Below, in pieces: positions 2,786 through 59,160 of a DNA stretch of 64,000 bases (within the stretch, counting starts at the first letter, position 1; each line of letters begins with the position of its first letter). The notes beneath the pieces are model-generated. The model had not been told where the DNA came from and ran no database searches. It saw nothing but the letters and a program-made list of their open reading frames with translations. The stretch is taken from assembly GCA_964016885.1 (NCBI GenBank), contig OZ024740.1, forward strand, positions 330,026,001 through 330,090,000. Direction: 5' to 3'. The position numbers and the translations under genes were made by a program. The stretch is from Eledone cirrhosa. Lineage: Eukaryota.

Positions 2786-5280
2786 ATTGGAATAAATGCT
2801 CTGAAATAGCGATATATATATGAATATAGACATAGAATATTCGAAAATATTCTGTATGTTTATAATAAACATTTTGAAGACCTAATCGCTATAGAATAGA
2901 ATACGTCACGTATTACAATTAGATTCTCGATAAAAGCAAGGGAAGTAATCTACGCGTTTCATTCTTGTTAGAATTCATCAGGACTACATATCCAGTGCTT
3001 TTATCGAGAATGACACAGCTAGAGACTTATAGAATACTTAGCTGTGTACAGGAACTGGTTTGAAAGAGCGGTTGCCGGTCCGGCAGAAATTAGAAATTGG
3101 AATAAATGCTCTGAAATAGCGATATATATATGAATATAGACATAGAATATTCGAAAATATTCTGTATGTTTATAATAAACATTTTGAAGACCTAATCGCT
3201 ATAGAATAGAATACGTCACGTATTACAATTAGATTCTCGATAAAAGCAAGGGAAGTAATCTACGCGTTTCATTCTTGTTAGAATTCATCAGGACTACATA
3301 TCCAGTGCTTTTATCGAGAATGACACAGCTAGAGACTTATAGAATACTTAGCTGTGTACAGGAACTGGTTTGAAAGAGCGGTTGCCGGTCCGGCAGAAAT
3401 TAGAAATTGGAATAAATGCTCTGAAATAGCGATATATATATGAATATAGACATAGAATATTCGAAAATATTCTGTATGTTTATAATAAACATTTTGAAGA
3501 CCTAATCGCTATAGAATAGAATACGTCACGTATTACAATTAGATTCTCGATAAAAGCAAGGGAAGTAATCTACGCGTTTCATTCTTGTTAGAATTCATCA
3601 GGACTACATATCCAGTGCTTTTATCGAGAATGACACAGCTAGAGACTTATAGAATACTTAGCTGTGTACAGGAACTGGTTTGAAAGAGCGGTTGCCGGTC
3701 CGGCAGAAATTAGAAATTGGAATAAATGCTCTGAAATAGCGATATATATATGAATATAGACATAGAATATTCGAAAATATTCTGTATGTTTATAATAAAC
3801 ATTTTGAAGACCTAATCGCTATAGAATAGAATACGTCACGTATTACAATTAGATTCTCGATAAAAGCAAGGGAAGTAATCTACGCGTTTCATTCTTGTTA
3901 GAATTCATCAGGACTACATATCCAGTGCTTTTATCGAGAATGACACAGCTAGAGACTTATAGAATACTTAGCTGTGTACAGGAACTGGTTTGAAAGAGCG
4001 GTTGCCGGTCCGGCAGAAATTAGAAATTGGAATAAATGCTCTGAAATAGCGATATATATATGAATATAGACATAGAATATTCGAAAATATTCTGTATGTT
4101 TATAATAAACATTTTGAAGACCTAATCGCTATAGAATAGAATACGTCACGTATTACAATTAGATTCTCGATAAAAGCAAGGGAAGTAATCTACGCGTTTC
4201 ATTCTTGTTAGAATTCATCAGGACTACATATCCAGTGCTTTTATCGAGAATGACACAGCTAGAGACTTATAGAATACTTAGCTGTGTACAGGAACTGGTT
4301 TGAAAGAGCGGTTGCCGGTCCGGCAGAAATTAGAAATTGGAATAAATGCTCTGAAATAGCGATATATATATGAATATAGACATAGAATATTCGAAAATAT
4401 TCTGTATGTTTATAATAAACATTTTGAAGACCTAATCGCTATAGAATAGAATACGTCACGTATTACAATTAGATTCTCGATAAAAGCAAGGGAAGTAATC
4501 TACGCGTTTCATTCTTGTTAGAATTCATCAGGACTACATATCCAGTGCTTTTATCGAGAATGACACAGCTAGAGACTTATAGAATACTTAGCTGTGTACA
4601 GGAACTGGTTTGAAAGAGCGGTTGCCGGTCCGGCAGAAATTAGAAATTGGAATAAATGCTCTGAAATAGCGATATATATATGAATATAGACATAGAATAT
4701 TCGAAAATATTCTGTATGTTTATAATAAACATTTTGAAGACCTAATCGCTATAGAATAGAATACGTCACGTATTACAATTAGATTCTCGATAAAAGCAAG
4801 GGAAGTAATCTACGCGTTTCATTCTTGTTAGAATTCATCAGGACTACATATCCAGTGCTTTTATCGAGAATGACACAGCTAGAGACTTATAGAATACTTA
4901 GCTGTGTACAGGAACTGGTTTGAAAGAGCGGTTGCCGGTCCGGCAGAAATTAGAAATTGGAATAAATGCTCTGAAATAGCGATATATATATGAATATAGA
5001 CATAGAATATTCGAAAATATTCTGTATGTTTATAATAAACATTTTGAAGACCTAATCGCTATAGAATAGAATACGTCACGTATTACAATTAGATTCTCGA
5101 TAAAAGCAAGGGAAGTAATCTACGCGTTTCATTCTTGTTAGAATTCATCAGGACTACATATCCAGTGCTTTTATCGAGAATGACACAGCTAGAGACTTAT
5201 AGAATACTTAGCTGTGTACAGGAACTGGTTTGAAAGAGCGGTTGCCGGTCCGGCAGAAATTAGAAATTGGAATAAATGCT
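2786..5280 (-). repeat. Left arm of 310-bp hammerhead tandem array (8 units; ribozyme on minus strand)
   Basis: aataaatgct recurs at 2791, 3101, 3411, 3721, 4031, 4341, 4651, 4961 and 5271. Confidence 0.97.
2945..2987 (-). ncRNA. Type I hammerhead ribozyme (first of 8 minus-strand copies, every 310 bp to 5115-5157)
   Basis: Reverse complement of GUAGUC-CUGAUGA-AUUCU-AACA-AGAAU-GAAA-CGCG-UA-GAUUAC. Confidence 0.9.
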
Positions 5281-8237
5281 GATGAATTCTAACAAGAATG
5301 AAACGCGTAGATTACTTCCCTTGCTTTTATCGAGAATCTAATTGTAATACGTGACGTATTCTATTCTATAGCGATTAGGTCTTCAAAATGTTTATTATAA
5401 ACATACAGAATATTTTCGAATATTCTATGTCTATATTCATATATATATCGCTATTTCAGAGCATTTATTCCAATTTCTAATTTCTGCCGGACCGGCAACC
5501 GCTCTTTCAAACCAGTTCCTGTACACAGCTAAGTATTCTATAAGTCTCTAGCTGTGTCATTCTCGATAAAAGCACTGGATATGTAGTCCTGATGAATTCT
5601 AACAAGAATGAAACGCGTAGATTACTTCCCTTGCTTTTATCGAGAATCTAATTGTAATACGTGACGTATTCTATTCTATAGCGATTAGGTCTTCAAAATG
5701 TTTATTATAAACATACAGAATATTTTCGAATATTCTATGTCTATATTCATATATATATCGCTATTTCAGAGCATTTATTCCAATTTCTTATTTCTGCCGG
5801 ACCGGCAACCGCTCTTTCAAACCAGTTCCTGTACACAGCTAAGTATTCTATAAGTCTCTAGCTGTGTCATTCTCGATAAAAGCACTGGATATGTAGTCCT
5901 GATGAATTCTAACAAGAATGAAACGCGTAGATTACTTCCCTTGCTTTTATCGAGAATCTAATTGTAATACGTGACGTATTCTATTCTATAGCGATTAGGT
6001 CTTCAAAATGTTTATTATAAACATACAGAATATTTTCGAATATTCTATGTCTATATTCATATATATATCGCTATTTCAGAGCATTTATTCCAATTTCTAA
6101 TTTCTGCCGGACCGGCAACCGCTCTTTCAAACCAGTTCCTGTACACAGCTAAGTATTCTATAAGTCTCTAGCTGTGTCATTCTCGATAAAAGCACTGGAT
6201 ATGTAGTCCTGATGAATTCTAACAAGAATGAAACGCGTAGATTACTTCCCTTGCTTTTATCGAGAATCTAATTGTAATACGTGACGTATTCTATTCTATA
6301 GCGATTAGGTCTTCAAAATGTTTATTATAAACATACAGAATATTTTCGAATATTCTATGTCTATATTCATATATATATCGCTATTTCAGAGCATTTATTC
6401 CAATTTCTAATTTCTGCCGGACCGGCAACCGCTCTTTCAAACCAGTTCCTGTACACAGCTAAGTATTCTATAAGTCTCTAGCTGTGTCATTCTCGATAAA
6501 AGCACTGGATATGTAGTCCTGATGAATTCTAACAAGAATGAAACGCGTAGATTACTTCCCTTGCTTTTATCGAGAATCTAATTGTAATACGTGACGTATT
6601 CTATTCTATAGCGATTAGGTCTTCAAAATGTTTATTATAAACATACAGAATATTTTCGAATATTCTATGTCTATATTCATATATATATCGCTATTTCAGA
6701 GCATTTATTCCAATTTCTAATTTCTGCCGGACCGGCAACCGCTCTTTCAAACCAGTTCCTGTACACAGCTAAGTATTCTATAAGTCTCTAGCTGTGTCAT
6801 TCTCGATAAAAGCACTGGATATGTAGTCCTGATGAATTCTAACAAGAATGAAACGCGTAGATTACTTCCCTTGCTTTTATCGAGAATCTAATTGTAATAC
6901 GTGACGTATTCTATTCTATAGCGATTAGGTCTTCAAAATGTTTATTATAAACATACAGAATATTTTCGAATATTCTATGTCTATATTCATATATATATCG
7001 CTATTTCAGAGCATTTATTCCAATTTCTAATTTCTGCCGGACCGGCAACCGCTCTTTCAAACCAGTTCCTGTACACAGCTAAGTATTCTATAAGTCTCTA
7101 GCTGTGTCATTCTCGATAAAAGCACTGGATATGTAGTCCTGATGAATTCTAACAAGAATGAAACGCGTAGATTACTTCCCTTGCTTTTATCGAGAATCTA
7201 ATTGTAATACGTGACGTATTCTATTCTATAGCGATTAGGTCTTCAAAATGTTTATTATAAACATACAGAATATTTTCGAATATTCTATGTCTATATTCAT
7301 ATATATATCGCTATTTCAGAGCATTTATTCCAATTTCTAATTTCTGCCGGACCGGCAACCGCTCTTTCAAACCAGTTCCTGTACACAGCTAAGTATTCTA
7401 TAAGTCTCTAGCTGTGTCATTCTCGATAAAAGCACTGGATATGTAGTCCTGATGAATTCTAACAAGAATGAAACGCGTAGATTACTTCCCTTGCTTTTAT
7501 CGAGAATCTAATTGTAATACGTGACGTATTCTATTCTATAGCGATTAGGTCTTCAAAATGTTTATTATAAACATACAGAATATTTTCGAATATTCTATGT
7601 CTATATTCATATATATATCGCTATTTCAGAGCATTTATTCCAATTTCTAATTTCTGCCGGACCGGCAACCGCTCTTTCAAACCAGTTCCTGTACACAGCT
7701 AAGTATTCTATAAGTCTCTAGCTGTGTCATTCTCGATAAAAGCACTGGATATGTAGTCCTGATGAATTCTAACAAGAATGAAACGCGTAGATTACTTCCC
7801 TTGCTTTTATCGAGAATCTAATTGTAATACGTGACGTATTCTATTCTATAGCGATTAGGTCTTCAAAATGTTTATTATAAACATACAGAATATTTTCGAA
7901 TATTCTATGTCTATATTCATATATATATCGCTATTTCAGAGCATTTATTCCAATTTCTAATTTCTGCCGGACCGGCAACCGCTCTTTCAAACCAGTTCCT
8001 GTACACAGCTAAGTATTCTATAAGTCTCTAGCTGTGTCATTCTCGATAAAAGCACTGGATATGTAGTCCTGATGAATTCTAACAAGAATGAAACGCGTAG
8101 ATTACTTCCCTTGCTTTTATCGAGAATCTAATTGTAATACGTGACGTATTCTATTCTATAGCGATTAGGTCTTCAAAATGTTTATTATAAACATACAGAA
8201 TATTTTCGAATATTCTACGTCTATATTCATATATATA
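5279..8237 (+). repeat. Right, inverted arm of 310-bp hammerhead tandem array (about 9.5 units)
   Basis: gatgaattct recurs at 5281, 5591, 5901, 6211, 6521, 6831, 7141, 7451, 7761 and 8071. The unit is the reverse complement of the left-arm unit. Confidence 0.97.
5583..5625 (+). ncRNA. Type I hammerhead ribozyme (first of 9 complete plus-strand copies, every 310 bp to 8063-8105)
   Basis: Helix I GUAGUC/GAUUAC, core CUGAUGA, helix II AUUCU/AGAAU, GAAA, palindromic helix III ACGCGU. Predicted GUA cleavage after 5619. Helix I is extended by a 16-bp stem (attctcgataaaagca/tgcttttatcgagaat) beyond an internal loop. Confidence 0.9.
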
Positions 8238-8260
8238 TATATATATATATAAATATATAA

Positions 8261-9044
<784 letters not shown>

Positions 9045-15404: not shown

Positions 15405-16019
15405 TTAGAAAGTGAGGGTTTTTTTACAAAATGAAAAATAACCGAAGTGTCCTACACGAGTGAAAGTATAAAGACAAAGAGATGACATTGAAAATGCAAC
15501 TGGAGTCTTATTTAAAAAAAAATATATATATTTATTTGGTTCCTTTACCGGTTTCGCAGTTCTTCTTCTTCTTTTCAAAAGTAGAGTTGAGATGGAGGGT
15601 CTGTGGTTTTCTCACACCTGGTTGGTCTTTGAATGTTACTTGTTTTATATGGAAAAAAGTGGCTCGAAACGCCAGGTTTTTAGAGAAGTAATTTGATTGG
15701 TTGGTTAATAATAATAATAAATTTCGCGCCAGTTGGCGTTACAAAGTTCTTCATAGAAGGGAGGGGGGGGGCTCAGGTTTTTTTTTTCATATATGAAGGC
15801 TTTTTTTTTAATTGCTTCTCTAAAAACCTGGCGTTTCGAGCCACGTTTTTCCATATAAAACAAGTAACATTCAAAGACCAACCAGATGTGAGAAAAACCA
15901 CAGACCCTCCATCTCAACTCTACTTTTGAAAAGAAGAAGAACTACGAAACCGGTAAAGGAACTAAATAAATATATATATTTTTAAATAAGACTTCAGTTG
16001 CATTTTCGATTTCATCTTT
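15405..16019. repeat. Foldback element in (TA)n, same family as 1158-1527, with degenerate HHR motifs in both arms
   Basis: Arms at about 15485-15690 and 15812-16019; ttttgaaaa...gaaaccggtaaagg at about 15923-15959. Confidence 0.85.
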
Positions 16020-16082
16020 TATATATATATATATAGTTTTAATATGGAAGAGTTTCTACATTCTACAGCACGAGCTTCTACA

Positions 16083-16381
16083 TTCTCACGAATGAAACAG
16101 TTCTAGTCCTGTAGAATCTCATCTATATTAAAACTTTTATACTCTGCTATGTATTGAGTACCTTACTTACTGTCGTTACCTCCGATTCAACCCGGAATAA
16201 CGTTTATATATATAGATATATTGATATATATATATATATAGGTATGTTATTCCGGGTTGAATCGGAGGTAACCACAGTAAGTAAGGTACTCAATACATAG
16301 CAGAGTATAACTGTTTTAATATAGATGATATTCTACAGGACTAGAACTGTTTCATTCTTTAGAAATCATCAGGAATCTCAT
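16083..16381. repeat. Tail-to-tail inverted pair with a (TA)n centre, carrying a hammerhead
   Basis: 16092-16201 is the reverse complement of about 16246-16357. Confidence 0.85.
16326..16381 (-). ncRNA. Type I hammerhead motif
   Basis: atgagattc-CTGATGA-tttc-taaa-gaat-GAAA-cag-ttctagtc-ctg-TA-gaat(a/c)tcat. Confidence 0.7.
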
Positions 16382-24189: not shown

Positions 24190-25118
24190 CGAATAATGAA
24201 AAGCGAAGTAGTTTCAGATGTTCAAGTCCTTTAATAATAATGCTGTGATATATATTTCAATGACGACACTGGCCACACTGTTCTGTGTGCGAGTGTCGTG
24301 TCATCATCAGACAGCTTGTTACATAATAAGGTTATGTTTCCGAGGCAATCCAATTTTTTTACTCACTTCAATCTATATTTTTACTCAATCCGAATTATCA
24401 CTTGAAACATTTTTGAATTTCGAATTTTTTAATTGTTTAATTTTTAATCTTTGATATTTGATTTAGGATTTTAATTTTTGATTTTTATTTCCAACTCTCA
24501 CTCTTAACTTCCAATGTAAAAACATGGTACCTAGAATTAAGTTTATTTTCCCTTATGAGATGATGGTCAGTCTTGCTGTCAACGCTTAGTGAAAGGTAGT
24601 ATTATGACCTATAAAAACTAACACCCTCCCATCCCCTCTGGCTTTCGGCTGACTGCTACAGTCGTGATGTATAGCAGTAAACTTTGGTAGGGCATAAGTG
24701 GGCCATTGTTTTGGCTGAGGGGATGAACTGACAGCGAATTTCGTTGAAATCTGCGGTGGCTAATGGTCAACTTCCTTTGGACATGCGCTTGCGCAGACCG
24801 GTGGGGGTGAATTGGTACTCACAAGGGAGCGGATGAAAAACCCAAAAGCACGAACTTCATCCGTTCCCATGTCGATTCAATTTGGATTGCCTCGGAAACA
24901 TAACCTTATTATGTAACAAGCTGTCTGATGATGACACGACACTCGCACACAGAACAGTGTGGCCAGTGTTGTCATTGAAATATATATCACAGCATTATTA
25001 TTAAAGGAATTGAACATCTGAAACTACTTCGCTTTTCCTTATTCGATATTTACTCCGTCACTCCTATGTGGAAAAAGTACGTTGAGTGCTTGAATTGAAT
25101 TGCATCAATGTTTACCCT

Positions 25119-25121: not shown

Positions 25122-25175
<54 letters not shown>

Positions 25176-25179
<4 letters not shown>

Positions 25180-26352
25180 TATTGGTCCTCTGAAATAGCG
25201 ATATATATATGAATATGTATATAGTGTATTTTGCAATACACTGTATTCTTAATTAAAAGCAGGTTCAAGACCATGCGCTATTGTTTTAAAGTAGCGACAT
25301 TGTCGCTTACATACATTGTCGGCAGGCAGGGGGAGATAAGATCACAGGCCTGTTTCGTACTAATTGGTACTTGTCAAAACTCAGTATTCTCCCGTCTGCT
25401 GAAAATTATAGAATTCCAGTAACGATCAGGAACTGATTTGCAGAGCTGTCGCCGGCCCAGAAGAAATTGAAAATTAGAATTGCTGCTCTGAAATAGCGAT
25501 ATATATATGAACGTGTATGTAGTGTATTTTGCAATACACTGTATGCTTAATTAAAAATATTTTCAAGTCCATACTCAATTGATTTAAATTAACGACATTG
25601 TCGCATGCTTACATTTTCGGCAGGCAGGGGGAGATAAGATGACAGCGCTGGTCTTGAAATTGCTTTTAATTAAGCATACAGTATATTGCAAAATACTCTC
25701 TATATACATTCATATATATATCGCTATTTCAGAGCAGCAATTCTAATTTTGAATTTCTGCTGGGCCGGCGACCGCTCTGTAAAATCTGTTCTTGATTGCT
25801 ACTGGAATTCTATAAGAATGCAAAACACATAATTTTAGGCAGACGGGGAGAGTACTGAGTTTCGACAAGTAACAATTAGTACGTAACAGCGCTGTCAACT
25901 TATCTCCCTCCTGCCTGCCAAACATTTAAGTAAGCGACAATGTCGCTACGATAAAAAAATAGCATAAGTTCTTCAAAATGCTTTTAATTAAGCATACAGT
26001 GTATTGCAAAATACACTATATGCACATTCATATATATATCGGTATTTCAGAGCAGCAATTCTAATTTTCAATTTCTGCTGGGCCGGCGACGGCTCTGTAA
26101 AATCAGTTCCTGATTGTTGCTGGAATTCTATAAGAATCAAACACACATAATTTTCGGCAGACGGGGAGAGTACTGAGCTTTGACAAGTACCAATTAGTAC
26201 GAAACAGCGCTGTCAACTTACCCCCCCCCCCCTCCTGCCGGCCGAAAATTTAAGTAAGTGACAATGTCAGTACTTTAAAACAATAGCGTATGGGCTTGAA
26301 AATTATTTTAATTAAGCATACAGTGTATTGCAAAATACACTATATATACATT

Positions 26353-26358
<6 letters not shown>
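25176..26358. repeat. Diverged inverted tandem array (about 300-325-bp units) related to the 310-bp family
   Basis: Shares ctctgaaatagcgatatatatatgaa and caggaactg..tttg..agagc.g..gccgg.cc..cagaaatt. Left arm 25176-25650, right arm 25651-26358. Confidence 0.9.
26174..26220 (+). ncRNA. Type I hammerhead with U3-A8 core (degenerate copies at about 25855-25901 plus and 25337-25383 minus)
   Basis: tgagct-TTGACAA-gtac-caatta-gtac-GAAA-cagcgctg-TC-aactta, with outer helix I ggcagacggggag/ctccccctgcctgcc. Confidence 0.75.
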
Positions 26359-26393
<35 letters not shown>

Positions 26394-33785: not shown

Positions 33786-36761
33786 CCACACAGCAAAGTG
33801 GGAGTAATTCCACTGGTGGCCACAGGGAGAGCAATCTTACTCTGAGCTCTGACTGCCGAACAACATAGTGTTGAAACAGAATGTCTTTCCGGTGCCTCCT
33901 GGAGCATCTATGAAAGCACAAAGTTGCTCATTAGTAGAAATCGAGTGGAGAACGCCATCAACCAATTCTCTCTGAGATTGGGTTAACATTGGCATACGTT
34001 CATCCACAATACGTTGCTGTTTCAGTCGAACAAAATGGAATAGTTCCATCCGATCGAGTGGCAACCGTCTAAGCTGCAATCTCATGTTCAATGCTAAGAC
34101 ACATTGCCGCATTTCTTCATCAGGAATTGGCAAACTGAAATCTGTTAAACATTTGAAATGAACTTCAAGCAATTGCTCAATATTGAGCAAAAAAATAGCT
34201 TTCATCAGATTTTCATCATCGACATGAAGATGATGCCAAAAGTCATCAGCCATAATTCCCCAATAGCGTTCAAATAACTCTCTTGGATCGGCAGGATTGG
34301 AGAACCCTAGAATCGTGACAAACAACTGTGTTATTTGAGCAGGCATCTCTGTTGTTCCTGCAGCTTCCATGGCGTTATTCCATTCAGCGTCATCCTGAAG
34401 GAGTCCCAGAGGCTGACACACAGCCTGGTATGTTTCACATTCCATGCCATTGATTGTTTTCAAATCAGCGAAGCTCAGTTTACCTATCGAAAAATCATTA
34501 TGCAACAGAATTCGGAGATAAAACACATCATCAGATGCTGGATGGACATTACAAACCAATCCAATAGTCATGAATCTCAAATTTTGTTTTCTATCATTCC
34601 ATTTCTTTCCCTTCTTATCCCACGTATAGTGGGAAGGGAAATCGCAGCAGAGCTGCCTTTGATCCGGGTTCAAAGCATCTTCCCTATTATTCTTGAACCA
34701 CTCAGTCAATTCCGTCTTAGGAGGTGGTGCGTTAGCAATTCTTTCGACACCTCTTCTAGTGTCTTTAAAACAGACCAATTGCCTATTCTCTAAGTGAACC
34801 GTCAGTTTCTGAACGCTGGGTTTGCGTTTATTGAGATCAAAATCGAACAATCCCCAGCAAGCTTCGCTAGATCCAATCGAGCGAACATCCTGGAACCTGG
34901 CAACTTCATCTCCTTGGTTCGCTTCCTTATTCCTGATCATTGACCGGTCATGACCTTTGTAAACATATTTGAATAGAAATCTACAAGCCTTCACTGAGCT
35001 ACAAATTTCCACATTAATATGACAACGACATTTCATAATCAAACATGGATTGATTGGCAAACCCAATGATTTGTAATCTGTCGACCGTTTACATTTTCGA
35101 CCAAACCGCCATCTGCAGGCGACCGTCTTCTGTATGAGGGATGAACATCCCCATCGTTCCAGGAAGTGTTCGTGAGAAAAGATTTCGGAAAGTGCTTACT
35201 GCATTGGCCATTTTTCATGCAAGGCGCTCTCCGATTTACCACTCCGCATTGGTTGTGCACCATTGACTTTACCACAAAGTTGCGTAGTGCCTCATTCTCC
35301 GGCAGTTCAGCACACATAATTCTGTCGTCATCCTCAGCACATTTCAATTTGAAATCTCTATGTAAAATGATCAGCAAATGTGCATGTGGCAATCCTCTTT
35401 TTTTGAATTCAATTACGTATGTAAAAGCAACTATACCTCCAAAGATTCCCTCTTTTTCCACATCATCCATTATCTTTTTCAGATATCATTTGAATACTCT
35501 TGCCACAATATCAGGACGGTCCTTTGGCTGTCGTCCTGGCAAAAGTGCATCCTTAATATCAGTCCATTCAGGATTGCATGTAACCGTTATAAACAAATCT
35601 GGGTTTCCAAACTTTCTGACAATAGCCATTGTATCCTGATAGCGAATGTTCATATATCTCGGGCCACCGATGAACGACGACGATGGCAAAATGATGCGTC
35701 GACCAATTTGATTGTAATTGGCATCATCGGCTGTTATCGCATCCTGTATATTATTATACAATACAGCTCTGATGTGTTGCTGATCTGTAGCTATATAATT
35801 CAGCCTTTGATTTTCGATCTTTGCGAAAGCCATACAACAGTATTCCTGGAACAATCTGCTGGCTTTAAATAGCGCATTTCTCTGTGTCTATTGTCTCTAT
35901 TGCCACCTACCTGTTGATGCTGATTCTCATGATCATCTAAATGAACAAACATGTTCCATCCATTTTCACCTTTTGGGAATAAAATAACATAATGCAATGG
36001 ATTGCATGCCCTATTTGACTCATTGATAGTCTTGAGACCAATCATCTCTGCGATTGAGGAAGATATCTCTCGATCCAGGCTTATCGTCCATCAATACAGC
36101 AACTTCACGAAATCCTTCAGCGGCATTATATCGCCGTTCGTGTTGATTCCTTGGCACTGCGTCAGCCTTAATCACCAATGTTTGCGGCTGAACATTTTGC
36201 TGTTCAGCCACTAACATGAAATCCATAACATAAGGATTACACTGTCTAAACCATGATTGCAAATGACTGATCAAATCACTTAACCTTTGCCGTTCAAGTT
36301 CAGTTATATTTCCCGTCAATTTCATCCAACCGATCCTGATATCCTCCTCCGATTCACTATAATCTGGATCGTTAACGTAACTTTGAGCGAATCGCGGCCT
36401 CTCTCCTGGGGTAACTTCTAAATTACCGATACAATGATACAAACGGCCTTGAATGACTACATTCGGTTGCCATGCTCCACTCTCAAACATCTCACTAACG
36501 CTCTGCGATTCTAAAACTAATGAATTGTTAATTTGCAGCGAATATTTGCGCACTAATCTAGCTCGGTCTCCTTGATCACCCCACATACTTAGTATTTTAA
36601 ACTCTGGTGACTCCTCAACATCCGGCATTCGCAAGGGTTCTAGTTAAACTGCTCCTTTATGACAGCACATTGTGGTCCACGTCTTTTCGTGCCTCCAAAG
36701 CAATGATCCACAATGTGGACACTCTGCTCGTCCACCAATCTGAAAATGACACGGTTGCCAT
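33786..36761 (-). pseudogene. Helitron RepHel: Zn finger, HUH Rep and helicase motif I (inverted segment)
   Basis: CPHCG..CCHKG, FITVTCNPEW, YVIEFKKRGLPHAHLLI, FLFKYVYKGHDR and DAPGGTGKTF, split by frameshifts. Confidence 0.92.
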
Positions 36762-37715
36762 TCGGTGGTAAGACTATCGTTCTTGGTGTCGATTTCAGAC
36801 AGGTGTTACCAATTGTTAGGAATTCTCAAAGAGCGCAAATTGTTGATGCATGTCTGAAAAAGTCCCCGTTGTTGCGCCATTTCAGAGTTTTGCGATTACA
36901 CGGTAATATGCGACTTCGTATGTTCGGGCAAAACGAAGAGGTTGATGCAGTTAGGAAAGGATTAATTGCCACACGTTGGTTATAATCAGACTGTAAGAAT
37001 CCCAGACCATTTGGTCATGCCAGTGGACCGCCAAGCATTGATTGGCAAGGTGTTCCCTAATTTGAATGCTTTTTGGCAGAATATCTCCAGGATATCGGAA
37101 CGCGTTATTCTAACTCATACGAATGCAACGGTCGATGATATAAATTCACAAGTAACCGGAATGTTTCCTGGAGAGGAATGGTTGACTGTCAGTGTGGATG
37201 CAATGGAGCCTAATCAGCAGAACAATATGGATGTTCCGACTGAGTATCTGAATTCACTTCAAATACCCGGATTTCTCCCACATATTTTGAGGTTGAAAAA
37301 GGTTATGCCGATTATATTGCTAAGAGATATCAATAGTAAAATGGCTCTTTACAATGGTACCAGATTGATTGTTGAGAGATTCATTAACGGAAGAGTTTTA
37401 GAAGCTAAACTTCCAGGCAGAGACGAATCAGTTCTCATTGCGAGGATCATGCTGAGACCAAGTGAAGATTTACTGCCATTCATTTGGCAAAGGAGACATT
37501 TTCCCGTCAATTTGTCCTTCTCCATGATTGTCAACAAGGCACAGGGACAGACTTTCAAGCAGGTCCGTGTCTACTCGAATGATCTAGCATTCAACCATGG
37601 GCAACTGTATGTTGCTGCATTTCGAGTGTGCGATCCTGATGGTATAAAATTTGCAATTGATACCACTAACAGAGGAACAACCCTGAATATTGTCTATAAT
37701 GAAGCTTTGAGCTGA
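36759..37715 (+). pseudogene. Helitron PIF1-like helicase, C-terminal part
   Basis: [36 protein letters not shown] and HGQLYVAAFRV. Confidence 0.92.
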
Positions 37716-43728: not shown

Positions 43729-46700
43729 CTAGCTGACGTACCCAGCTTCGCCCGGGTAAACAGATGATAAGAGAAGACAGGTAAAAGAGAAACTGACTGT
43801 ATTGGATGTCTGTCTGATTACAGTATGAGGCGAGTCCGTGGTGTCTGTGTGATACCAAAAACAGTAAAAACATCTTCCACATATACAATATTCTTCGTTG
43901 TACCGTTTGTGCATAGTATATGAATAATTCTAGATGCTCCCACCTAGAATATTGACCTCTAGGAGATGGTTCATCTTCTGCCTGACTGTAAAACGTGTAT
44001 CATTGCATAGACGTGGTTGTTCCACGTTTCTCAAAAGGATGCTGGAAGTTCCAATATTTTCTATTATATGTAGATATAGATATAGATAATTAATATAAAA
44101 GATGTCCGTCAATGTAAAAAAGGTCCCTATTTACTTGAAACGGTTTATACAAATGCGAAATTAATATGGATATGGATAGCATGCTTATCTATAAGTGGTC
44201 AGCTATAATAATAAAACAACAAATTATATGACACACAAAATTATTCAGTAATTTCCAATCAGTATTGCCAAAATTAAACTCGGGGAGGTGGCCTGGTTAG
44301 AACTCCAAATGGCGGATCCTTCTACTTCGAAAATAGAATCGTTTTTCAATATTACTCTAGCCTTGGCCGGCCATAGGCACCAAAGCTTTTTCCAGACTCA
44401 GCAGATGATGATGTTTTATTACCGCCGCTATCAGAAGCGATACATTTGAAGGCAATTTCTACCAATACTTGTTGGTTTTTATTGCTCATTATCGACAATA
44501 AAAGACATTGAACAGATTTGGTAACTCTGTCAAAGCTCACAATACTGATCAAAGGACACCAATGTCTGAATCATTTACGTCGAATATTCATAGCAGTGAA
44601 GGCAATGTCTACCAATACTTATTGTATCTATTGCGCAACATAGCTGTGAAAGCAAGTTTTTACCAATACTTGTTTGGGTTTATTGTTCATAACGACATTA
44701 AATGACATTGAACATGAATGATAACTCTGTCAAAGTTCACAATACTGATCAAAGGACACCAATGTGGGAATCATTTACGTCGCTTATTGATAGCATTAAA
44801 GATATGCAGACATCAGCTCAAAGCTTCATTATAGACAATATTCAGTGTTGTTCTTCTGTTAGTGGTATCAATTGCAAATGTTATACCATCAGGATCGCAC
44901 ACTCGAAATGCAGCAACATACAGGTGCCCATGGTTGAATGCTGGATCATTCAAGTAGACACGGCTTCGCTTGAAAGTCTGTCCCTGTGCCTTGTTGACAG
45001 TCAAGGAGAAGGTCAGATCGACGGGAAAATGTCTCCTTTGCCAAATGAATGGCAGCAGATCTTCACTTGGTCTCAGCATGATCCTCTCAATGAGAACCGA
45101 TTCCTCTCTGCCTGGGAGTTTAGCTTCTAAAACTCTTCCCCTCATCAATCTCTCAACATTAAATCTGGTACCATTGCAAATATCCATATTATGATTGATT
45201 TTTCTAAGCAATATAATCGGCATACCCTTTTTCAACCTCAAAATATGTGGGGAAAATCCGGGTATTTGAAGTGAATTCAGATACTCAGTCGGAACATCCA
45301 TATTGTTCTGCTGATTAGGCTTCATTGAATCCGCAATGACGGTCGACCATGCCTCTCCAGGAAACATTCCAGATACTTGTGAATTTATTTCATCGAACGT
45401 TGCATACGTATGAGTTAGAATAACGCGTTCCGATATCCAGGAGATATTCTGCCAAAAAGCATTCAAATTAGGGAACACCCAGTCAATCAATGCTTGGCGG
45501 TCCAGTGGCATGACCAAATGGTCTGGGATTCTTACAGTCTGATTATCACCAACGTGTGGCAATTCATCGTTTCCCAACTGCATCAACTATCAGCCGTATA
45601 TCTCAGTCTCTACGTTTTGCCCGAACATACGAAGTCGCATATTATCGTGTAATAGCAAAACTCTGAATTGGCGCCACAACGGAGACTTTTTCAGACAAGT
45701 ATCGAAAATTTGCGCTCTTTCAGCATTCCTAACAATTGGTAGCACCTGTCTGAAATCGCCACCAAGTACGATAGTCTTACCACCGAATGACAGATCACTA
45801 CCGCAGATATCTCTCAAAGTTCTGTCCAATACCTCCCGCAAATATATGTGTGCCATTGGAGCCTCATCCCAAACAATACGAGACGTATTGCGTATAAGGT
45901 CCGCGATTTCACTTTGTCCTGTAATGTTACAGACACTCAACTCATCCGGAGCCAATGGAGGCTTGAAGCATGAGTGGAAGGTCCTTCCACCACTCAGCAA
46001 AGTGGTAGTGATCCCACTGGTGGCCACAGGGAGAGCAATCTTCCTCTGAGCTCTGACTGCCGATAACATAGTGTTGAAACAGAATGTCTTTGCGGTGCCT
46101 CCTGGAGCATCTACGGAAGCACAAAGTTGCTCATTAGTGGAAATCGAGTGGAGAACGCCATCGACCAATCTCTCTGAGATTGGGACAACATTGGCATACG
46201 TTCCTCCACAATACGTAGCTGTTTCAGTTGATCAAACTGGAATAGTTCCATCCGATCGAGTGGCAACCGTCTAAGCTGCAATCTCATGTTCAATGCTAAG
46301 AGACGTTGCCGCACTTCTTCATCAGGAATTGGCAAATTGAAATATGTTAAACATTTGAAATGAACTTCAAGCAGTTGCTCAATATTGAGCAAAACAATAG
46401 CTTTCATCAAATTTTCTTCATCGACCTGAAAGTGATGCCTAAAATCATCAGCCATAATTCCCCAATGGCGTTTAAATAACTCTCTTGGATCGGCAGGATT
46501 GCAGAACCCTAGAATCGTGACAAACAACTGCCTTATTTGCGCTGGCATCTGTGTTGTTCCTGCAGCTTCCATGGCGTTCTTCCATTCAGCGTCATCCTGA
46601 AGGAGTCCCAGATGCTTACACACAGCCTGGTATGTTCCATATTCCACGCCATTGATTGTTTTCAAATCAGCGAAGCTCAGTTTACCTATCGAAAAATCAT

Positions 46701-49602
46701 TATGCAACAGAATTCGGAGATAAAACACATCACCAGATGCTGGATGGACATTACAAACCCGTCCAATAGTCATGAATCTGAACGTTTGTTTTCTATCATT
46801 CCATTTCTTTCCCTTCTTATCCCACGTATAGTGCGAAGGGAAATCGCAGTAGAGTTGCCTTTGATGCGGGTTCAAAGCATGTTCCGTATTATTCTTGAAC
46901 CACTCAGTCAATTCCGTCTTAGGAGGTGGTGTGTTAGCAATTCTTTCGACACCTCTTCTAGTGTCCTTAAAACAGACCAATTGCCTATTCTCTAAGTGAA
47001 CCGTCAGTTTCTGAACGCTGGGTTTGCGTTCATTGAGATCAAAATCGAACAATCCCGAGGAAGCTTCGCTAGATCCAATCGAACGAACAACCTGGAACCT
47101 GGCAACTTCATCTCCTTGGTTCGCGTCCTTATTCCTGACATTGATCATTGCCCGATCATGATATTTGTAAACATATTTGAATAGAAATCTGCAAGTTTTC
47201 ACTGAACTACAAATTTCCTCATTAATATGCCAACAATATTTCATAATCAAATATTGTATGGCACAACCCAATGATTTGTAACCTGTCGACCGTTTACATT
47301 TTCGACCAAACCGCCATCTGCAGGCGAAGGTCTTCTGTATGAGGGATGAGCATCCCCATCGTTCCAGGAAGTGTTCGTGACAAAAGATTTCGGAAAGTGC
47401 TTACTGCATTGGCAATTTTTCATGCAAGGCGCTTTCCAATTTGCCACTCCGCATTGGTTGTGCTCCATTGACTTTGCCACCAAGTTGCGTAGTGCCTCAT
47501 TCTCCGGCAGTTCAGCACACATAATTCTGTCGTCATCCTCAGCACATTTCAATTTGAAATCTCTATGTAAAATTATCAGCAAATATGCATGTGGCAATCC
47601 TCTTTTTTGGAATTCAATTACGTATGTAAAAGCAACTATACCTCCAAAGATTCCCTCTTTTTCCACATCATCCATTATCTTTTTCAGATTTCCTTTGAAT
47701 ACTCTTGCCACAATATCAGGACGGTCATTTGGCAATTGTCCTGGCAAATGTGCATCCTTAATATCAATCCATTCAGGATTGCATGTAACCGTTATAAACA
47801 AATCTGGGTTTCCAAACTTTCTGACAATAGCCATTGCATCCTGATAGCGAATGCTCATATATCTCGGGCCGCCGATGAACAACGATGGCAACATGATTCG
47901 TCGACCAATTTGCTTGTAATTGGCATCATCGGCTGTTATCGCATCCTGTATATTATTATATAATTTAGCTCTGATATGTTGCTGATGTGTAGCTATATAA
48001 TTTAGCCTTTGATTCTCGATCTTGCGAATGCCATACAACAGTATTCCTGGAAGAATCTGCTGGCTTGAAATAGCGCATTTCTCTGTTGATTCCTCTCGTT
48101 CAAATGGAACGCGTAAAAGTAGCGAATCGAATTATTGTGACTATTGCCACCTCCCTGTTGATGCTGATTCTCATGATCATCTAAATGAACAGACATGTTC
48201 CATCCATTTTCACCTTTTTAAAATAAAAGAACATAATGCAATGGATCGTATGCTCTATTAGACTCATTGATAGTCTTGAGACCATCATCTCTGCGATTGA
48301 GGACGATATCTCTCGATCCAGCCTTATCGTCCATCAACACTGCAACTTCACGAAATCCTTCAGGGGCATTATATCGCCGTTCGTGATGATTCCTTGGCAC
48401 TGCGTCAGCCTTAATCACCAATGTTTGCTGCTGAACCTTTTGTAGTTCAGTCACCAACAGGAATTCAATAACATAAGGATTACATGATTGCAAATCACGG
48501 ATCAAATCACTTAACCTTTGCCGTTCAAGTTCAGTTATATTTCTCGGCATCTTCATCCAACCGATCCTGATATCCTCCTTCGATTCTCTATAATCTGGAT
48601 CTTTAACGTAAATTTGAGCGAATCGCGGCCTCTCTCCTGGGGTAACTTCTAAATTACCGATACAATGATACATACGGCCTTGAATGACTACATTCGGTTG
48701 CCATGCTCCACTCTCAAACGTCTCATTAACTCTCTGCGATGCTAGAACTAATGTATTGTTAATTTGCCGCGAATATTTGCGCAGTAATCTACCTCAGCCT
48801 CCTTGATCACACCACATACTTAGTATTTCTAACTCCGGTGACTCCTCACCATCCGGCATTCGCAAGGGTTCTAGTTGACCTGCTCCTTTATGATAACACA
48901 TTGTGGTCCACGTCTTTTCGTGCCTCCAAAGCAATGCTCCACAATGTGGACACTCTGCTCGTCCAAACAATCCTTAAATGACACGGTTGCCATGATCCAT
49001 TTTTAATATCATTATTTCGCCTTCTAGCCTATTTACTGGAATGAGGAGCACTTTGGCGACACATTCTCTTATTTCCACACACATCACACACATGTCTCTA
49101 AACTGACACATATACATAGTGTATAAACAATGACACAATAATAAACATAAAAAAGTGTCCGTCAATGTAAAGAAAGGTCCCTATTTACTCCCTTTACAAC
49201 TCTGTGTATTTTAGACTAACAGACCGGCACACAGACAGATAAACTGCGTGGCGATTGTGAAACGCCGCACGTACATACACATACACGCATGGAAACGCGC
49301 ACACGCACACACACTTACACACTCACACATGTTGATAGTTTTTACTTCCTGTGGAACGCTGCACGCACGCACGCACACATAAACATACGCGCACGTACAT
49401 AGACACTCACACATGGTTATAGTTACAGCGTTCACTTTGACTCTCTGTTTCTTACTCTCCCCTCTCACTCCCTCATTGGCATTATGCGTATTAATTTCAG
49501 TTTGGCGTCGTTGAGGTGGGCGGAGTCGTTTCAAACCTATGAACCAATGATAATCGAGAATTATGACACACGGAATAGTGACGTTGTTGATATTAATATA
49601 TA
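43729..49602 (-). mobile_element. Helitron copy 2, near full length, decayed
   Basis: 3' hairpin acccgggcgaagctgggt plus CTAG at 43729-43732 followed by T. 5' region is homologous to 33370. Confidence 0.92.
44813..49000 (-). pseudogene. Helitron RepHel (Rep HUH endonuclease plus PIF1-like helicase), with stops and frameshifts
   Basis: Collinear ORFs: CPHCG Zn finger, FITVTCNPEW, EFQKRGLPHAY, FLFKYVYK, APGGTAKT, WDEAPM, GGDFRQVLP, TVNKAQGQT and HGHLYVAAFRV. Confidence 0.95.
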
Positions 49603-50704: not shown

Positions 50705-53700
50705 TTTATGATGGCTGCCGCCGCGTTATCGAGTATGGTCATTGCACGAAACAAAAAACAAAACGAAACATATATATGAATAATTAACCTTGCTGCGATC
50801 GAATGTAGATTTTTAGCCCAACCAATGATGTAAAATGTCTTGCACACAGTTAGAAAACATGTTAAAAACATTCACTGGCAATAGGCGGCTGTGGCTGGAT
50901 TTCATGTACGTTTGCATGTCGTTTGAGCCCTCCTGCTGATATACAATCTCTTCCACATGCTTGAGAGATATGATGAGCAGCTACTCCGACGGCAGCCTGG
51001 TAGTAGTCAACCACTGGTCTCACTTTATGATTACGAAGATGACTTTCGAGTCCAGCTTTGCTGAGGCAGAGTAGTGCACAGACGCGGCATGTCTACGCCA
51101 TAGGAGGACTTTTGCTCTCTGGAAATGCCTTTCCTGACATCACTTTTTACTTTCTTGTATGCTATTCGAGATGCTTCAAAAGCAATTTTCCCATCATATG
51201 CAGTCTTTCTCCGTGTATTACGATCATAAGCTACGCTTTCGCATGTATCAGCAGAGACGTTAGCATTTTTAAAGTGGGCTGTCACCGAATCTTTATACCT
51301 CATTTTTTCGTTTATGTGGAGGTCATTTTCCTTTAACTAACTCTCCATAAAAGAGTTGTTTTGGTATTCTAGAATCCTTATCCTGGAAAGGTGACCACCC
51401 CATCGAAGTCTTTGCTTAAGCACAAGAGTTTCTATGTTTTACACGGAGAGCTTTCCAAAATCTCGACATCACTGATGTTGTCCTTCCGGTGAACACCATG
51501 GATCTGTCTGAGACACCTCTGATAGATACGTTCCAACTGTTTAAGGTGGTGTCGATATGTGACCGAGATCTCGCAGGCATAAAGAAGAGAAGAGAGCACA
51601 CATGCTTTGTACACCTTTACCTTTGTATTCTTTCATATGTATCGCCGACCGTAGAGGCGCCTTTCTAGGTTACTTGCTTTCGGAATTCTGAGTGGAATTT
51701 CCTCATTAAGATTGCTGTATCAATTGACGGTTCTTCCCAGGTAGACAAACTGACTAACCACTCCAAGTTGTTTACCATACACATAGATATTTGGGTCACT
51801 GTACTGCTTATCAGGGGCAGGTTTTTTCATGACGCTGGTTTTCTTGAGGATGACAGTCAATCCAAGGGCAGGGCAAGCATCGGAAAATGCATTCAAAGAG
51901 TGCTGCATATCAATCTCTGTTTGTGCTACAAGCATGCAATAGGTCTCTTATGATGAAGGTAAATACTTTTGTTTTTGAAGCAAAGCGCCTGATCTTAAAT
52001 AGCCTGCTAGTAGATGTAACAAGTATGCTTGCAATTCCTGAATGCAATATAGAAAGGCATCGCAAAATCTATGGAAAATAGGGTCGGTGCTTTAATATTC
52101 CCGTGTTTCTGTCCATTTTTTCCCTGAGATAGACTCCGACATGCTACCTCTGACATTTAACCAAGCCTTCATGTTATTATGGAAAGACCTAACCAAAGCA
52201 AGGAACTTATCAAGGCAACCAGATTTCTGCAGAATCTGCCACAATTCATTTCTGTTAACAGTATCGAAAGCTTTTGTCAGATCGACAAAAAGCTGATACA
52301 GGTCTAAACCCTGTTACATGCACTTCTCCTGGAGCTATCTAGCCGAGATGATCACATCAGTATTGCCGCGTCCAGCAGCTCGAAGTACAGGTTGACTTTC
52401 TGGAAGAACATAATCTGCAATGTGTGTCAGCAGATGGTCCAGAGGCACCCTACAAAAAATGTTTCATACGACAGAAGCAGTGATATACGCCTATAGTTTC
52501 CACAATCATTGTTGTTACCCTGTCCGTGTACATGACTACCATTACTGCATCTCTCCAGTCCTCAGGTACGGATTCACAAAGCCATATCCTGCCAAACAAA
52601 GAGTGAAGATGTCGTAGAAGTCTCTCACCACCGCATTGTAAAAGCTCTGCATGTATGCCATCCATACATGGAGACATTCCACTGTTCAGCTTCGAGACAG
52701 CTTCTTCACCATCCTTTAAGATCCGTAGTGTGCGAGAATTACTTTCGCAGGTTTTTCAGGAATGAGATTGAGGAAATTTTCATTGGCGAATGACAGATGA
52801 TTCAAAAGTTCATCAAAGTGCTCTCGCCAACTTCGCAGAATTGCCCATGAGTCAGGAATAAGTTCCTTGCCATCCCTGCTGCGAAGCTGTGTCACCAGAG
52901 AAGAAGATGGTCCATAAACTTCACGGAAGAGATTGTACAACAGCTTTCTGTTCTTGAAATCTGATGTAGCTTGTATCTCATCTGCCTTCTCACTCCACCA
53001 CTTATTCTTCATCTCAGAAAGCCTCCGCCTCACACGGGATTTCACATCCTTGAGTTCCTTATGCGACATTTTCTTCTCCTGTGGCTTTGCTGCCAAGTAG
53101 CCTGACAGATCACGTCTCTTATCAGCCAATAATACATCTATATGTTCGTCATTTTCTTTAAACCAGTCTTGATGCTTTCTTTCTACCAATCCCAGAACAT
53201 CATAAACCAGGTTTTTAGGGGTCGGCCAATCCTCATCAATATTTGCAACATTCATTTCTTCTCGCAATGTCCGCTTCACACTATTATCCCTAAGACAATC
53301 AACATTCAGTCTTTTAGGCAGAGTAACATCAGCAGCCCGCACTTTACGTTTTGTTGTTAATTTTACTTTTGCACGTACCAGGTGGTGGGCCGTCTAACAC
53401 CCACGAGGAACACGAACACACTGCACATCCCATCACATCCCCTAACAAGGATGTAGTCCAGAAGATACCATTCTTTAGATGCAGGGTGCAACCATATGGT
53501 CTTAAACCTATTCTCTTGCTGAAACATGGTGTTGGTAACACACAGAGACAGCTCCACAAACATTTGCAGCAGGAGTATACCACTCCTGTTACACTTTCCC
53601 ACCGCATGCTTTCCGATTACAGTCAATGTGATAAAATCCCTACTCATTCTAGCATTAAGATCACCCAGCACGATAACCTTGTCTGCCTGAGGGATATTTC

Positions 53701-54630
53701 TTATAACACCTTTCAAAGTATTGTAGATAGATACTTTTTCTTCAAAAACAGAATTCATAGTGGGAGCATACATAGTCACCAGGGTCGCATACCTTCCTTT
53801 GCCCAACGGAATTATTATGGAATTATTATGGACATTTATCAGGTGGATAAATTCTTCCAATTTATCCCCATGAGCAGTCTTAACAGAAAATGCTACCCCA
53901 GTATTTCTTCTAATTCCTTCATCTCTCTCTTTCCAAAGAATGTATATTTTCCACAAAATCCCGCAAGATGACGATCTGAAGCTCACCTCGTCTCGGATAA
54001 AGCAACGATGTCAAAATCAGGACAACGAAGATCGTTTGCAGCAAGCGAGGTCCTTCGCTCAGGACGTTCTGAGCAATCACTATTAAGCAGTGTCCGTACG
54101 TTCCAACAGCCAATATTCAGTGATTTGTTTCATTCTATCACAATGGCACGATGAAGGCCGGGCCTAGGCTGTAATGCCCTGGGGCCACTGCCGGGCCAGA
54201 GCCTTTCACCTGGTGTGGTTCCATAGTCCTTATTGCCAATTATCTTTCAATACAGTTTTGGGACAACATTGAATTGGTTGCTTTTTAAGGCTGAACTAGC
54301 CATTCAATTGAAAAAAAAAAGTATAATATTATTAATAATTATAATTAATGCTATCATGCAATGCCTATGCGTGGCGATTTTTTTTTAAGTGAGGAAAGAC
54401 TGTGCACTGAACCAAACCCACGCTCTGAGTGACAATAGTTATAACCCGAAAAGAAGAAAGGATCAACATCATCTGTAACTCCGGAACCGCAGGTTTTATG
54501 TCGGAATTATGCCAGTTTCCTGAGTTGCCATCTCCAGAAGGATCCCTGACAAATGTAAGGGGTCTTTCACTCCCATTAGTTTAACAGTGCGATCGGGTAT
54601 ACAGTCCGATTATTTCTATGTCCCCGCACA
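50705..54630 (-). mobile_element. RTE-clade LINE, near full length, decayed (APE endonuclease, RT, C-terminal Zn fingers)
   Basis: IGCWNVRTL, ALSETR, YAPT, VLGDLNAR and LDYILVR (endonuclease). FVDLTKAFDTVNR and FVYLG (RT). VLSSLLYACE. Many frameshifts. Confidence 0.92.
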
Positions 54631-58949: not shown

Positions 58950-59160
58950 TAGATAATGAAAATAGGGCCTCTGTTGTATTATTGACTAAGTAAATGGTCC
59001 TAATATTTTGGAGTTATAAAAACCCACAGAAATAAAAAAAGGAATGAGCATTGACGTACATGAGACACGAACCCACATCTCTGGCTACCATTCTATTGTG
59101 TTACCATTACACCAATACGCCACTCACACCTTTTTCATTAAATTTGAAGCTATATAATTA
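58950..59160 (-). mobile_element. tRNA-headed repeat (family of 60457-60925)
   Basis: Homologous to 60480-60680. Confidence 0.7.

Follow-up and report, generated by a model that had tools for sequence, protein, structure and literature searches.

The array at positions 25,175-26,363 of the window, the 64,000-nt stretch of DNA analysed here, raised the question of where its hammerhead motif comes from. The textbook hammerhead core has a C-G at pair 3-8, and the array carries a U-A there. We consider it probable, at roughly 0.78, that the array is a copy of a non-coding ~317-bp repeat with a U3-A8 hammerhead motif that was inserted long ago and has since decayed, likely a non-LTR retrozyme brought in by a Penelope-like enzyme, and that its ribozyme and the one of the 310-bp family in the window (Y) likely share an ancestor, from which they diverged by gradual compensatory change.

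The array and its hammerhead motif

Five pieces of one ~317-bp unit, named S1, three full and two partial, were mapped between flanking (TA)n runs (Table 1). Two minus-strand units (25175-25650) and three plus-strand units (25649-26363) met centrally with their ribozyme-sense 5′ ends, which confirmed the head-to-head arms in (TA)n described in the original prediction. The array had also been called older than its 310-bp sister, and the window S1 units indeed showed 92-94% identity to the family consensus, as against 99-100% among the units of the 310 array. U5 was the only one of the three full units with every core nucleotide kept; its predicted cut lies after 26214, and its helix I has one C-A mismatch. 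No reading frame of at least 150 aa was found in the array region, nor an open frame with RT plus GIY-YIG. The S1 array in the window is an old, decayed and dead copy. Separate DNA contigs covered part of U4 with 3 differences, and none of them spanned the whole array. In an Rfam scan of the window, none of the 150 of 157 matches listed fell on the S1 array, and those on the 310 array were HH9 matches below threshold.

Table 1. Coordinates of the S1 array, its flanks and the 310-bp sister array in the window
Feature	Position	Strand	Remarks
Young sister array, 310-bp family Y	2786-8238		C3-G8 core; two-arm layout with one tail
Left (TA)n target run	25123-25174
3′ tail, ~26 nt	25175-25200	-	only at left end of insertion; left end = unit position 317, right end = 291
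Unit U1, full length	25175-25472	-	17-nt deletion
U1 hammerhead slot	25316-25405	-	U3 25377, A8 25372, GAAA 25356-25353
U1 helix III and site	25345-25343 (site)	-	helix III private CAGGCCUG; site decayed to GUG
Unit U2, 5′-truncated	25473-25650	-	unit positions 140-317; helix III and site, without core
Inverted-arm junction	25649-25650		2-nt overlap
Unit U3 of the array, 5′-truncated	25649-25747	+	unit positions 219-317; without ribozyme
Unit U4, full length	25748-26065	+	decayed core: U4C 25863, A13U 25884, helix II mismatch
Unit U5	26066-26363	+	unit positions 1-291; ends in internal (AT)5 run merging with target repeat
U5 hammerhead slot	26151-26248	+	U3 26180, A8 26185, helix II 26187-26190/26197-26200, GAAA 26201-26204, palindrome 26205-26212, GUC 26212-26214
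Scaffold hairpin	26323-26340	+	GCAA loop; 310 unit at same place: compensated stem, UUCG loop
Right (TA)n run	26353-26388

Other features of the window were recorded. Long inverted arms of another repeat lie just left of the S1 array (24190-24350 and 24880-25050), and a near-perfect palindrome at 8263-8390 is built from two ends of one repeat in inverted orientation; this repeat was also found beside several of the loci retrieved from the genome. Helitron-like Rep/helicase regions, both of them broken and with Helitron_like_N and PIF1 matches, were seen at 33840-37715 and 44813-48793. Frames at 52716-54010 resembled a LINE endonuclease region by eye, the scanned frame having no Pfam match, and a tRNA-like match at 59052-59121 was marginally above the Rfam cut-off.

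In every full S1 unit of the window the type I slot had U3 and A8 in its core, helix II was 4 bp long, helix III was palindromic and the outer helix I was long; the GUAC/GUAC helix II that had been proposed was present. Two variants of helix III had been claimed, but CAGGCCTG proved to be a private change of one decayed unit (1/44 units). The GUC site held for U5 and failed for the unit with CAGGCCTG, which has GUG. Across 44 S1 units the core was kept as U3 in 42, A8 in 44, G5 in 43, A6 in 42, GAAA in 41-44, U16.1 in 43 and C17 in 43. Three helices with covariation and an open end in helix I were found, and by core and helices the S1 unit is a type I hammerhead for which self-cleavage is predicted. 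Within S1, the sites that differed between subfamilies were position 7, loop II, the internal loop of helix I, position 143 in helix III and three positions of the outer helix.

Covariation was measured in 47 real copies (48 minus one with an internal deletion). In these, 91.6% of cells were paired compared to 80.8% in shuffles (0/500 as high) and 35-52% in slid controls; Y rows were misaligned by MAFFT near helix III and were scored unpaired there. Pair 3-8 was UA in 25 copies, CG in 20 and other in 2. Two-sided changes were found in 16/28 pairs, which is not clearly above chance (shuffle mean 13.7, 45/500 as high), and kinship among the copies inflates the other measures. Helix III showed no two-sided change in this alignment, yet it was palindromic across S1, S2 and Y.

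The circular S1 consensus folded with a z of -7.7 and the 310 unit with -4.7, and the isolated slots of window units folded weakly to moderately (z -0.2, -2.9 and -2.4). The predicted helix III hairpin was absent or barely formed (0 to -1.8 kcal/mol), and the predicted dimer duplex reached -16.9 kcal/mol in S1 and -20.1 kcal/mol in S2. Metazoan type I motifs are described, in the accessible text of PMC4209133, as having a helix III that is poor as a hairpin and good as a dimer duplex.

Subfamilies in the genome and their insertion layout

The 3.0-Gb animal assembly was searched by sequence patterns, either core plus helix II or scaffold-anchored. The core plus helix II pattern, with either 3-8 state allowed, gave 1013 exact matches and its reversed control 0. 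Listed matches were dispersed on many contigs, and the first 100 of the 1013 listed comprised 99 with U3-A8, 1 with U3-G8 and 0 with C3. Position 7 among the first 100 listed was U in 97, C in 2 and A in 1, so that the proposed UUGACAA core stood as to its U3-A8 pair but is a minority form.

Several subfamilies were distinguished. S2 (consensus from 29 units) has U3-A8 and a longer palindrome, M (1167 matches) has C3-G8, and T (674 matches, including some S copies) has U3-A8 with an M-like helix II. Y gave 2528 exact matches of one variant and made up 97 of the first 100 listed from a second pattern with 15077 matches. In distinct units the 3-8 pair was U3-A8 in 44/46 (S1) and 43/48 (S2), and C3-G8 in 36/38 (M) and 6/6 (Y). 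T copies were gathered with a pattern demanding U3-A8, and no T-like C3-G8 copies were seen by eye among 100 C3-G8 matches listed. A search for U3-G8 copies turned up no established family with that core: the 49 U3-G8 matches were scattered over several subfamilies and were partly spurious. Median nearest-neighbour identity, which varies with sample size, was 88% for T, 92% for M, 96% for S and 99% for Y in the sampled copies, and as it was lowest in T, the U3-A8 T copies look oldest. The possibility that U3-A8 requires a G10.1-C11.1 pair (present in S1 42/46 and S2 43/48) was refuted by T, with C-A or A-A there in 33/36. In one M unit (L135:1896-2144) the segment with the ribozyme core lay in reverse orientation at its usual place, flanked by the two strands of helix I.

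The features of non-LTR retrozymes that can be read from DNA were found: tandem non-coding units in the range of 150-400 bp, one type I hammerhead in each and many dispersed copies. We then compared 70 S loci, the window being one of them; 40 were chosen via the core pattern, with a bias to intact cores, and 30 via overall similarity. Diverging arms were seen in 48, one arm in 21, three arms in 1 and converging arms in 0. In 32 of the 48 diverging loci a single end carried the tail and the other was a TA end, a TA flank lay on at least one side in 46/48, and junctions overlapped by 1-4 nt in 30/63. We looked for clustering of arm ends at the cleavage site and saw none: 2/126 arm 5′ ends lay within 3 nt of the cut, with 2.8 expected. 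The two arms in the window shared private alleles, C226G in 4/5 units (0/41 others) and C307G in 3 units (0/24 elsewhere). The arms span several unit lengths and pass the cleavage site, and the shared private alleles together with the arm ends that ignore the cut site point to one circle or uncut multimer as the template.

The inverted 5′-truncated arm, the one-ended tail and the AT-rich target are those of a Penelope-like passenger. Inverted arms with a one-ended tail have been described for EN+ Penelope-like elements (PMC8557442), and in-vitro work accounts for the layout: each of the two strands is nicked and extended, and there are two internal start sites (PMC11167929). The genome had 150 scored GIY-YIG matches and 10596 first-look candidates for autonomous elements. 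One such element has a 938-aa frame with RT and GIY-YIG and a C-x4-C-xx-C linker, a kind assigned to Neptune in the available text of PMC8557442. U3-A8 hammerheads were carried by this 938-aa-frame family and by one other family. A terminal repeat homologous to the retrozyme scaffold was found in none of 55 element loci, a small sample of the 10596 candidates. Judging from insertion anatomy, these repeats are likely non-autonomous passengers of Penelope-like elements.

Penelope-like ends were also seen elsewhere in the window. An inverted pair of 3′ ends of PLE-A, an autonomous Penelope-like family with a full frame in L111 and its own U3-A8 hammerhead, lies at 1158-1527 and also at ~15900-16020; the one-ended tail of PLE-A is longer than the S tail, and the last 7 nt are identical in both. 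Inverted 3′ ends of PLE-Z, likewise an autonomous Penelope-like element, lie at ~16085-16380, and the PLE-Z hammerhead resembles the Y one. Many PLE-Z copies in the genome have two arms that stop shortly before the core, on its upstream side, in pairs separated by 4-50 nt.

The mechanism that we propose for S1 starts with hammerheads that would cut a multimeric transcript, helix III being completed in dimers via the palindrome, and would yield monomers and circles. As the insertion anatomy suggests, an autonomous Penelope-like RT/GIY-YIG protein would nick a (TA)n run on each strand, and reverse transcription from two internal sites ~26 nt apart would give arms with their 3′ ends outward, one of them tailed. 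Inserted copies then decay.

Kinship with the 310-bp family and history of pair 3-8

The scaffold had been predicted to be shared with the 310-bp unit beyond shuffled controls, and this was borne out. The S1 consensus and the 310 unit were collinear, with 210/321 columns identical (65%) and a z of 17.6 (1000 dinucleotide shuffles), and two actual window S1 units scored 237 and 225 against the 310 unit with a shuffle maximum of 110 (1000 dinucleotide shuffles each). Scaffold hairpins were compensated between S1 and Y as well, with a GCAA and a UUCG loop, respectively. The ribozyme slot had been described as unrelated sequence. The slot alone aligned collinearly with that of the 310 unit and beat 2000/2000 shuffles, and the subfamilies T, M and S2 provide intermediates, which shows that it is not unrelated. 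The listed 310-bp arrays mostly had diverging arms, and within each array a single, array-specific variant ran through every unit of the two arms, which fits copying from one circular template. At the helix II base, U-U is found in most Y variants and A-U in the Y array of the window.

Slot-only and scaffold-only trees of 22 copies agreed on (S1,S2) versus (M,Y), with a branch to S that was ~3.6x longer in the slot tree. The graded subfamilies, these congruent trees and the 16/28 two-sided pairs favour deep structure-conserving divergence in one retrozyme lineage, as had been suggested. Bridging copies point the same way: between L290 and its C3-G8 relative L231, positions 3 and 8 have changed and the flanks have not, which points to two transitions.

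An enlarged tree, with T and more M added (78 rows, columns 3 and 8 removed, 23/89 candidate loci skipped as too short), gave the order Y (C-G), T (U-A), M (C-G), S (U-A). This implies three changes, forced by the starred branches and also obtained per partition. With 78 rows, the AU test rejected a single change for the whole unit (p 0.010), and for the scaffold only it rejected nothing (p 0.53 and 0.83; the free search was stuck). A cleaned set of 60 rows was obtained by dropping 18 with poor scaffold cover, with 1-3 tree searches per constraint. Here one change was rejected for the whole unit (p 0.001), the scaffold (0.028) and the slot (0.030). Placing T on one side was rejected for the whole unit (0.006) and the slot (0.017) but not for the scaffold (0.30), and M as one clade, which requires two changes, was rejected nowhere (0.21, 0.30 and 0.42). 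The groups in these trees were defined only once the first tree had been seen, Y sat on a long branch and no outgroup root was used. The 3-8 pair of the master lineage thus likely switched between U-A and C-G at least twice, and three switches fit best.

The direction of switching was read from two things only, the age of T and the nesting of Y among T in the whole-unit and slot trees. On these, U3-A8 is the state of the oldest-looking copies and the canonical C3-G8 core of the 310-bp family is probably derived. The polarity implied by the original prediction is therefore probably reversed, and an imported core, if there is one, would be that of the 310-bp family. A more specific history, which we hold tentatively and at somewhat less than even odds, has three flips: M went from U-A to C-G, S returned to U-A, and Y acquired C-G, the last possibly by capture of a core from a helper retrotransposon. 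The inactive single-mutant state would have been crossed by hitch-hiking since insertion needs no cleavage, and the stages would be kept as dated fossils. This builds on the report that insertion by a purified Penelope-like protein in vitro was unaffected by hammerhead mutants (PMC11167929), from which we infer that a single-mutant core could ride through an insertion round.

That Y acquired its core and helix II by recombination with the PLE-Z terminal repeat is possible but doubtful, and would be compatible with the preferred reading. From helix I to GAAAC, Y and PLE-Z were identical at 27/31 positions and Y and its T relatives at 22/31, and other retrozyme-element pairs reached at most 22/31 or 24/37, except a second Y copy with 25/31. 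Both Y and PLE-Z have a GUA site, and PLE-Z is abundant (8362 exact matches, with open frames ending in an endonuclease-like domain by eye). However, the core constrains 11 of the compared positions and the two strands of a helix do not vary independently, Y has the 6-nt loop II and the helix I of T where PLE-Z has a 4-nt loop, and AT-biased drift could converge.

It is improbable that the U3-A8 motif no longer cleaves usefully and is kept as a folded RNA handle, spread from uncut multimers. Such a role would suit the in-vitro insertion result cited above, the arm ends that ignore the cut site and the T subfamilies with A-A or C-A at the helix II base, and 8/9 Xenopus retrozyme dimers were without cleavage in vitro (bioRxiv 10.64898/2026.07.22.740005). 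On the other hand, G5, A6, A9, GAAA and the UH site are kept in 41-44/44 while position 7 and loop II vary by subfamily, no mixed-state family was seen (49 U3-G8 versus 1167 C3-G8 matches, with the separate look at C3-A8 covering S), and a U3-A8 hammerhead was reported active in vitro (PMC3088659).

We regard as very improbable that a whole U3-A8 ribozyme was swapped into the S1 family from an unrelated source, even though U3-A8 autonomous elements exist as possible donors. The slot was less conserved than the scaffold between S1 and Y (51% versus 67-72%), in line with the long S branch in the slot tree, but the slot was faster in every pair, S1 versus S2 included (78% versus 91-94%). Nor does the module exchange into S1 that had been considered agree with the congruent trees, the bridging copies or the lack of a matching donor: against the hammerheads of six autonomous elements the S1 core reached at best 21/31, or 24/37 with gaps, and none beat its own relatives. 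A small patch of ~7 nt may have passed from a T copy into S. An ordinary satellite spread by DNA-level duplication would account for the tandem units, but is hardly credible given the dispersed short insertions, the fixed inverted layout, the one-ended tail, the (TA)n targeting and the RNA covariation.

Comparison with known systems and meaning

A non-LTR retrozyme moved by a Penelope-like enzyme, as we propose for S1, shares much with published systems. Dimeric, Penelope-linked hammerhead variants are said to have been described by Lunse et al. in 2017. The metazoan non-LTR retrozymes of Cervera and de la Pena 2020 (PMC7229834) have, like S1, ~300-350-bp non-coding tandem units of low GC, a type I hammerhead whose palindromic helix III is weak, and a circle predicted to fold well. 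For axolotl, that paper describes sister families whose hammerheads differ within a single genome, including a U-U mismatch at the helix II base, likewise as here. In contrast, the U3-A8 core and a resolved series with repeated switches are found here; expression and circles were demonstrated there, and the present repeats are known from DNA alone. The word 'inverted' occurs 0 times in the available text of that paper, and inverted arms plus a tail were seen here.

The dependence that we propose was also put forward by Li, Clavereau and Pollet (bioRxiv 10.64898/2026.07.22.740005), who treat Xenopus retrozymes as non-autonomous Penelope-like sequences. Their basis is co-occurrence and terminal-repeat homology, whereas ours is insertion anatomy, with no homologous terminal repeat in 55 loci; 'tail' and 'core' are absent from the preprint text as available. 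EN+ Penelope-like elements (PMC8557442, PMC11167929) resemble S1 in partial tandems, an inverted 5′-truncated copy, a one-ended tail and (TA)n or AT-rich targets, with their hammerhead near the 3′ end, but S1 is without an open reading frame, its whole unit is 317 bp and its tail is ~26 nt versus 30-40. In freely accessible main texts, the signature of tail plus inverted arms was not found reported for retrozymes.

The U3-A8 covariation of S and T is known from the natural variants of Perreault 2011 (PMC3088659) and from the Schistosoma Cercyon elements (PMC4209133), which had ~1300 hits in one genome and a Penelope-like link. The warning that searches for CUGANGA would miss such motifs is correct, but U3-A8 descriptors had already been published (PMC4209133). 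As far as their accessible texts go, these published motifs are minimal and mostly single, while here full type I hammerheads stand in tandem retrozyme units with a traceable history. Retrozymes and U3-A8 hammerheads are already published, and what appears new here is the probable repeated core switching in one lineage, for which the same freely accessible literature held no report.

The interest lies in the history of the lineage, as the locus in the window is itself a dead copy. Searches for the canonical core overlook the S and T subfamilies, which amount to at least ~1700 motif matches in the genome. The recent proposal that Penelope-like enzymes mobilise animal retrozymes is supported directly, at the level of the insertions, by the tail and the inverted arms. 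With thousands of copies in age-graded subfamilies, in which the catalytic pair flips repeatedly without an established mixed state, the compensatory-change route in a ribozyme core becomes testable with natural sequences. If the three-flip reading is true, the family would document, in nature, how the active site of a ribozyme crossed a fitness valley.
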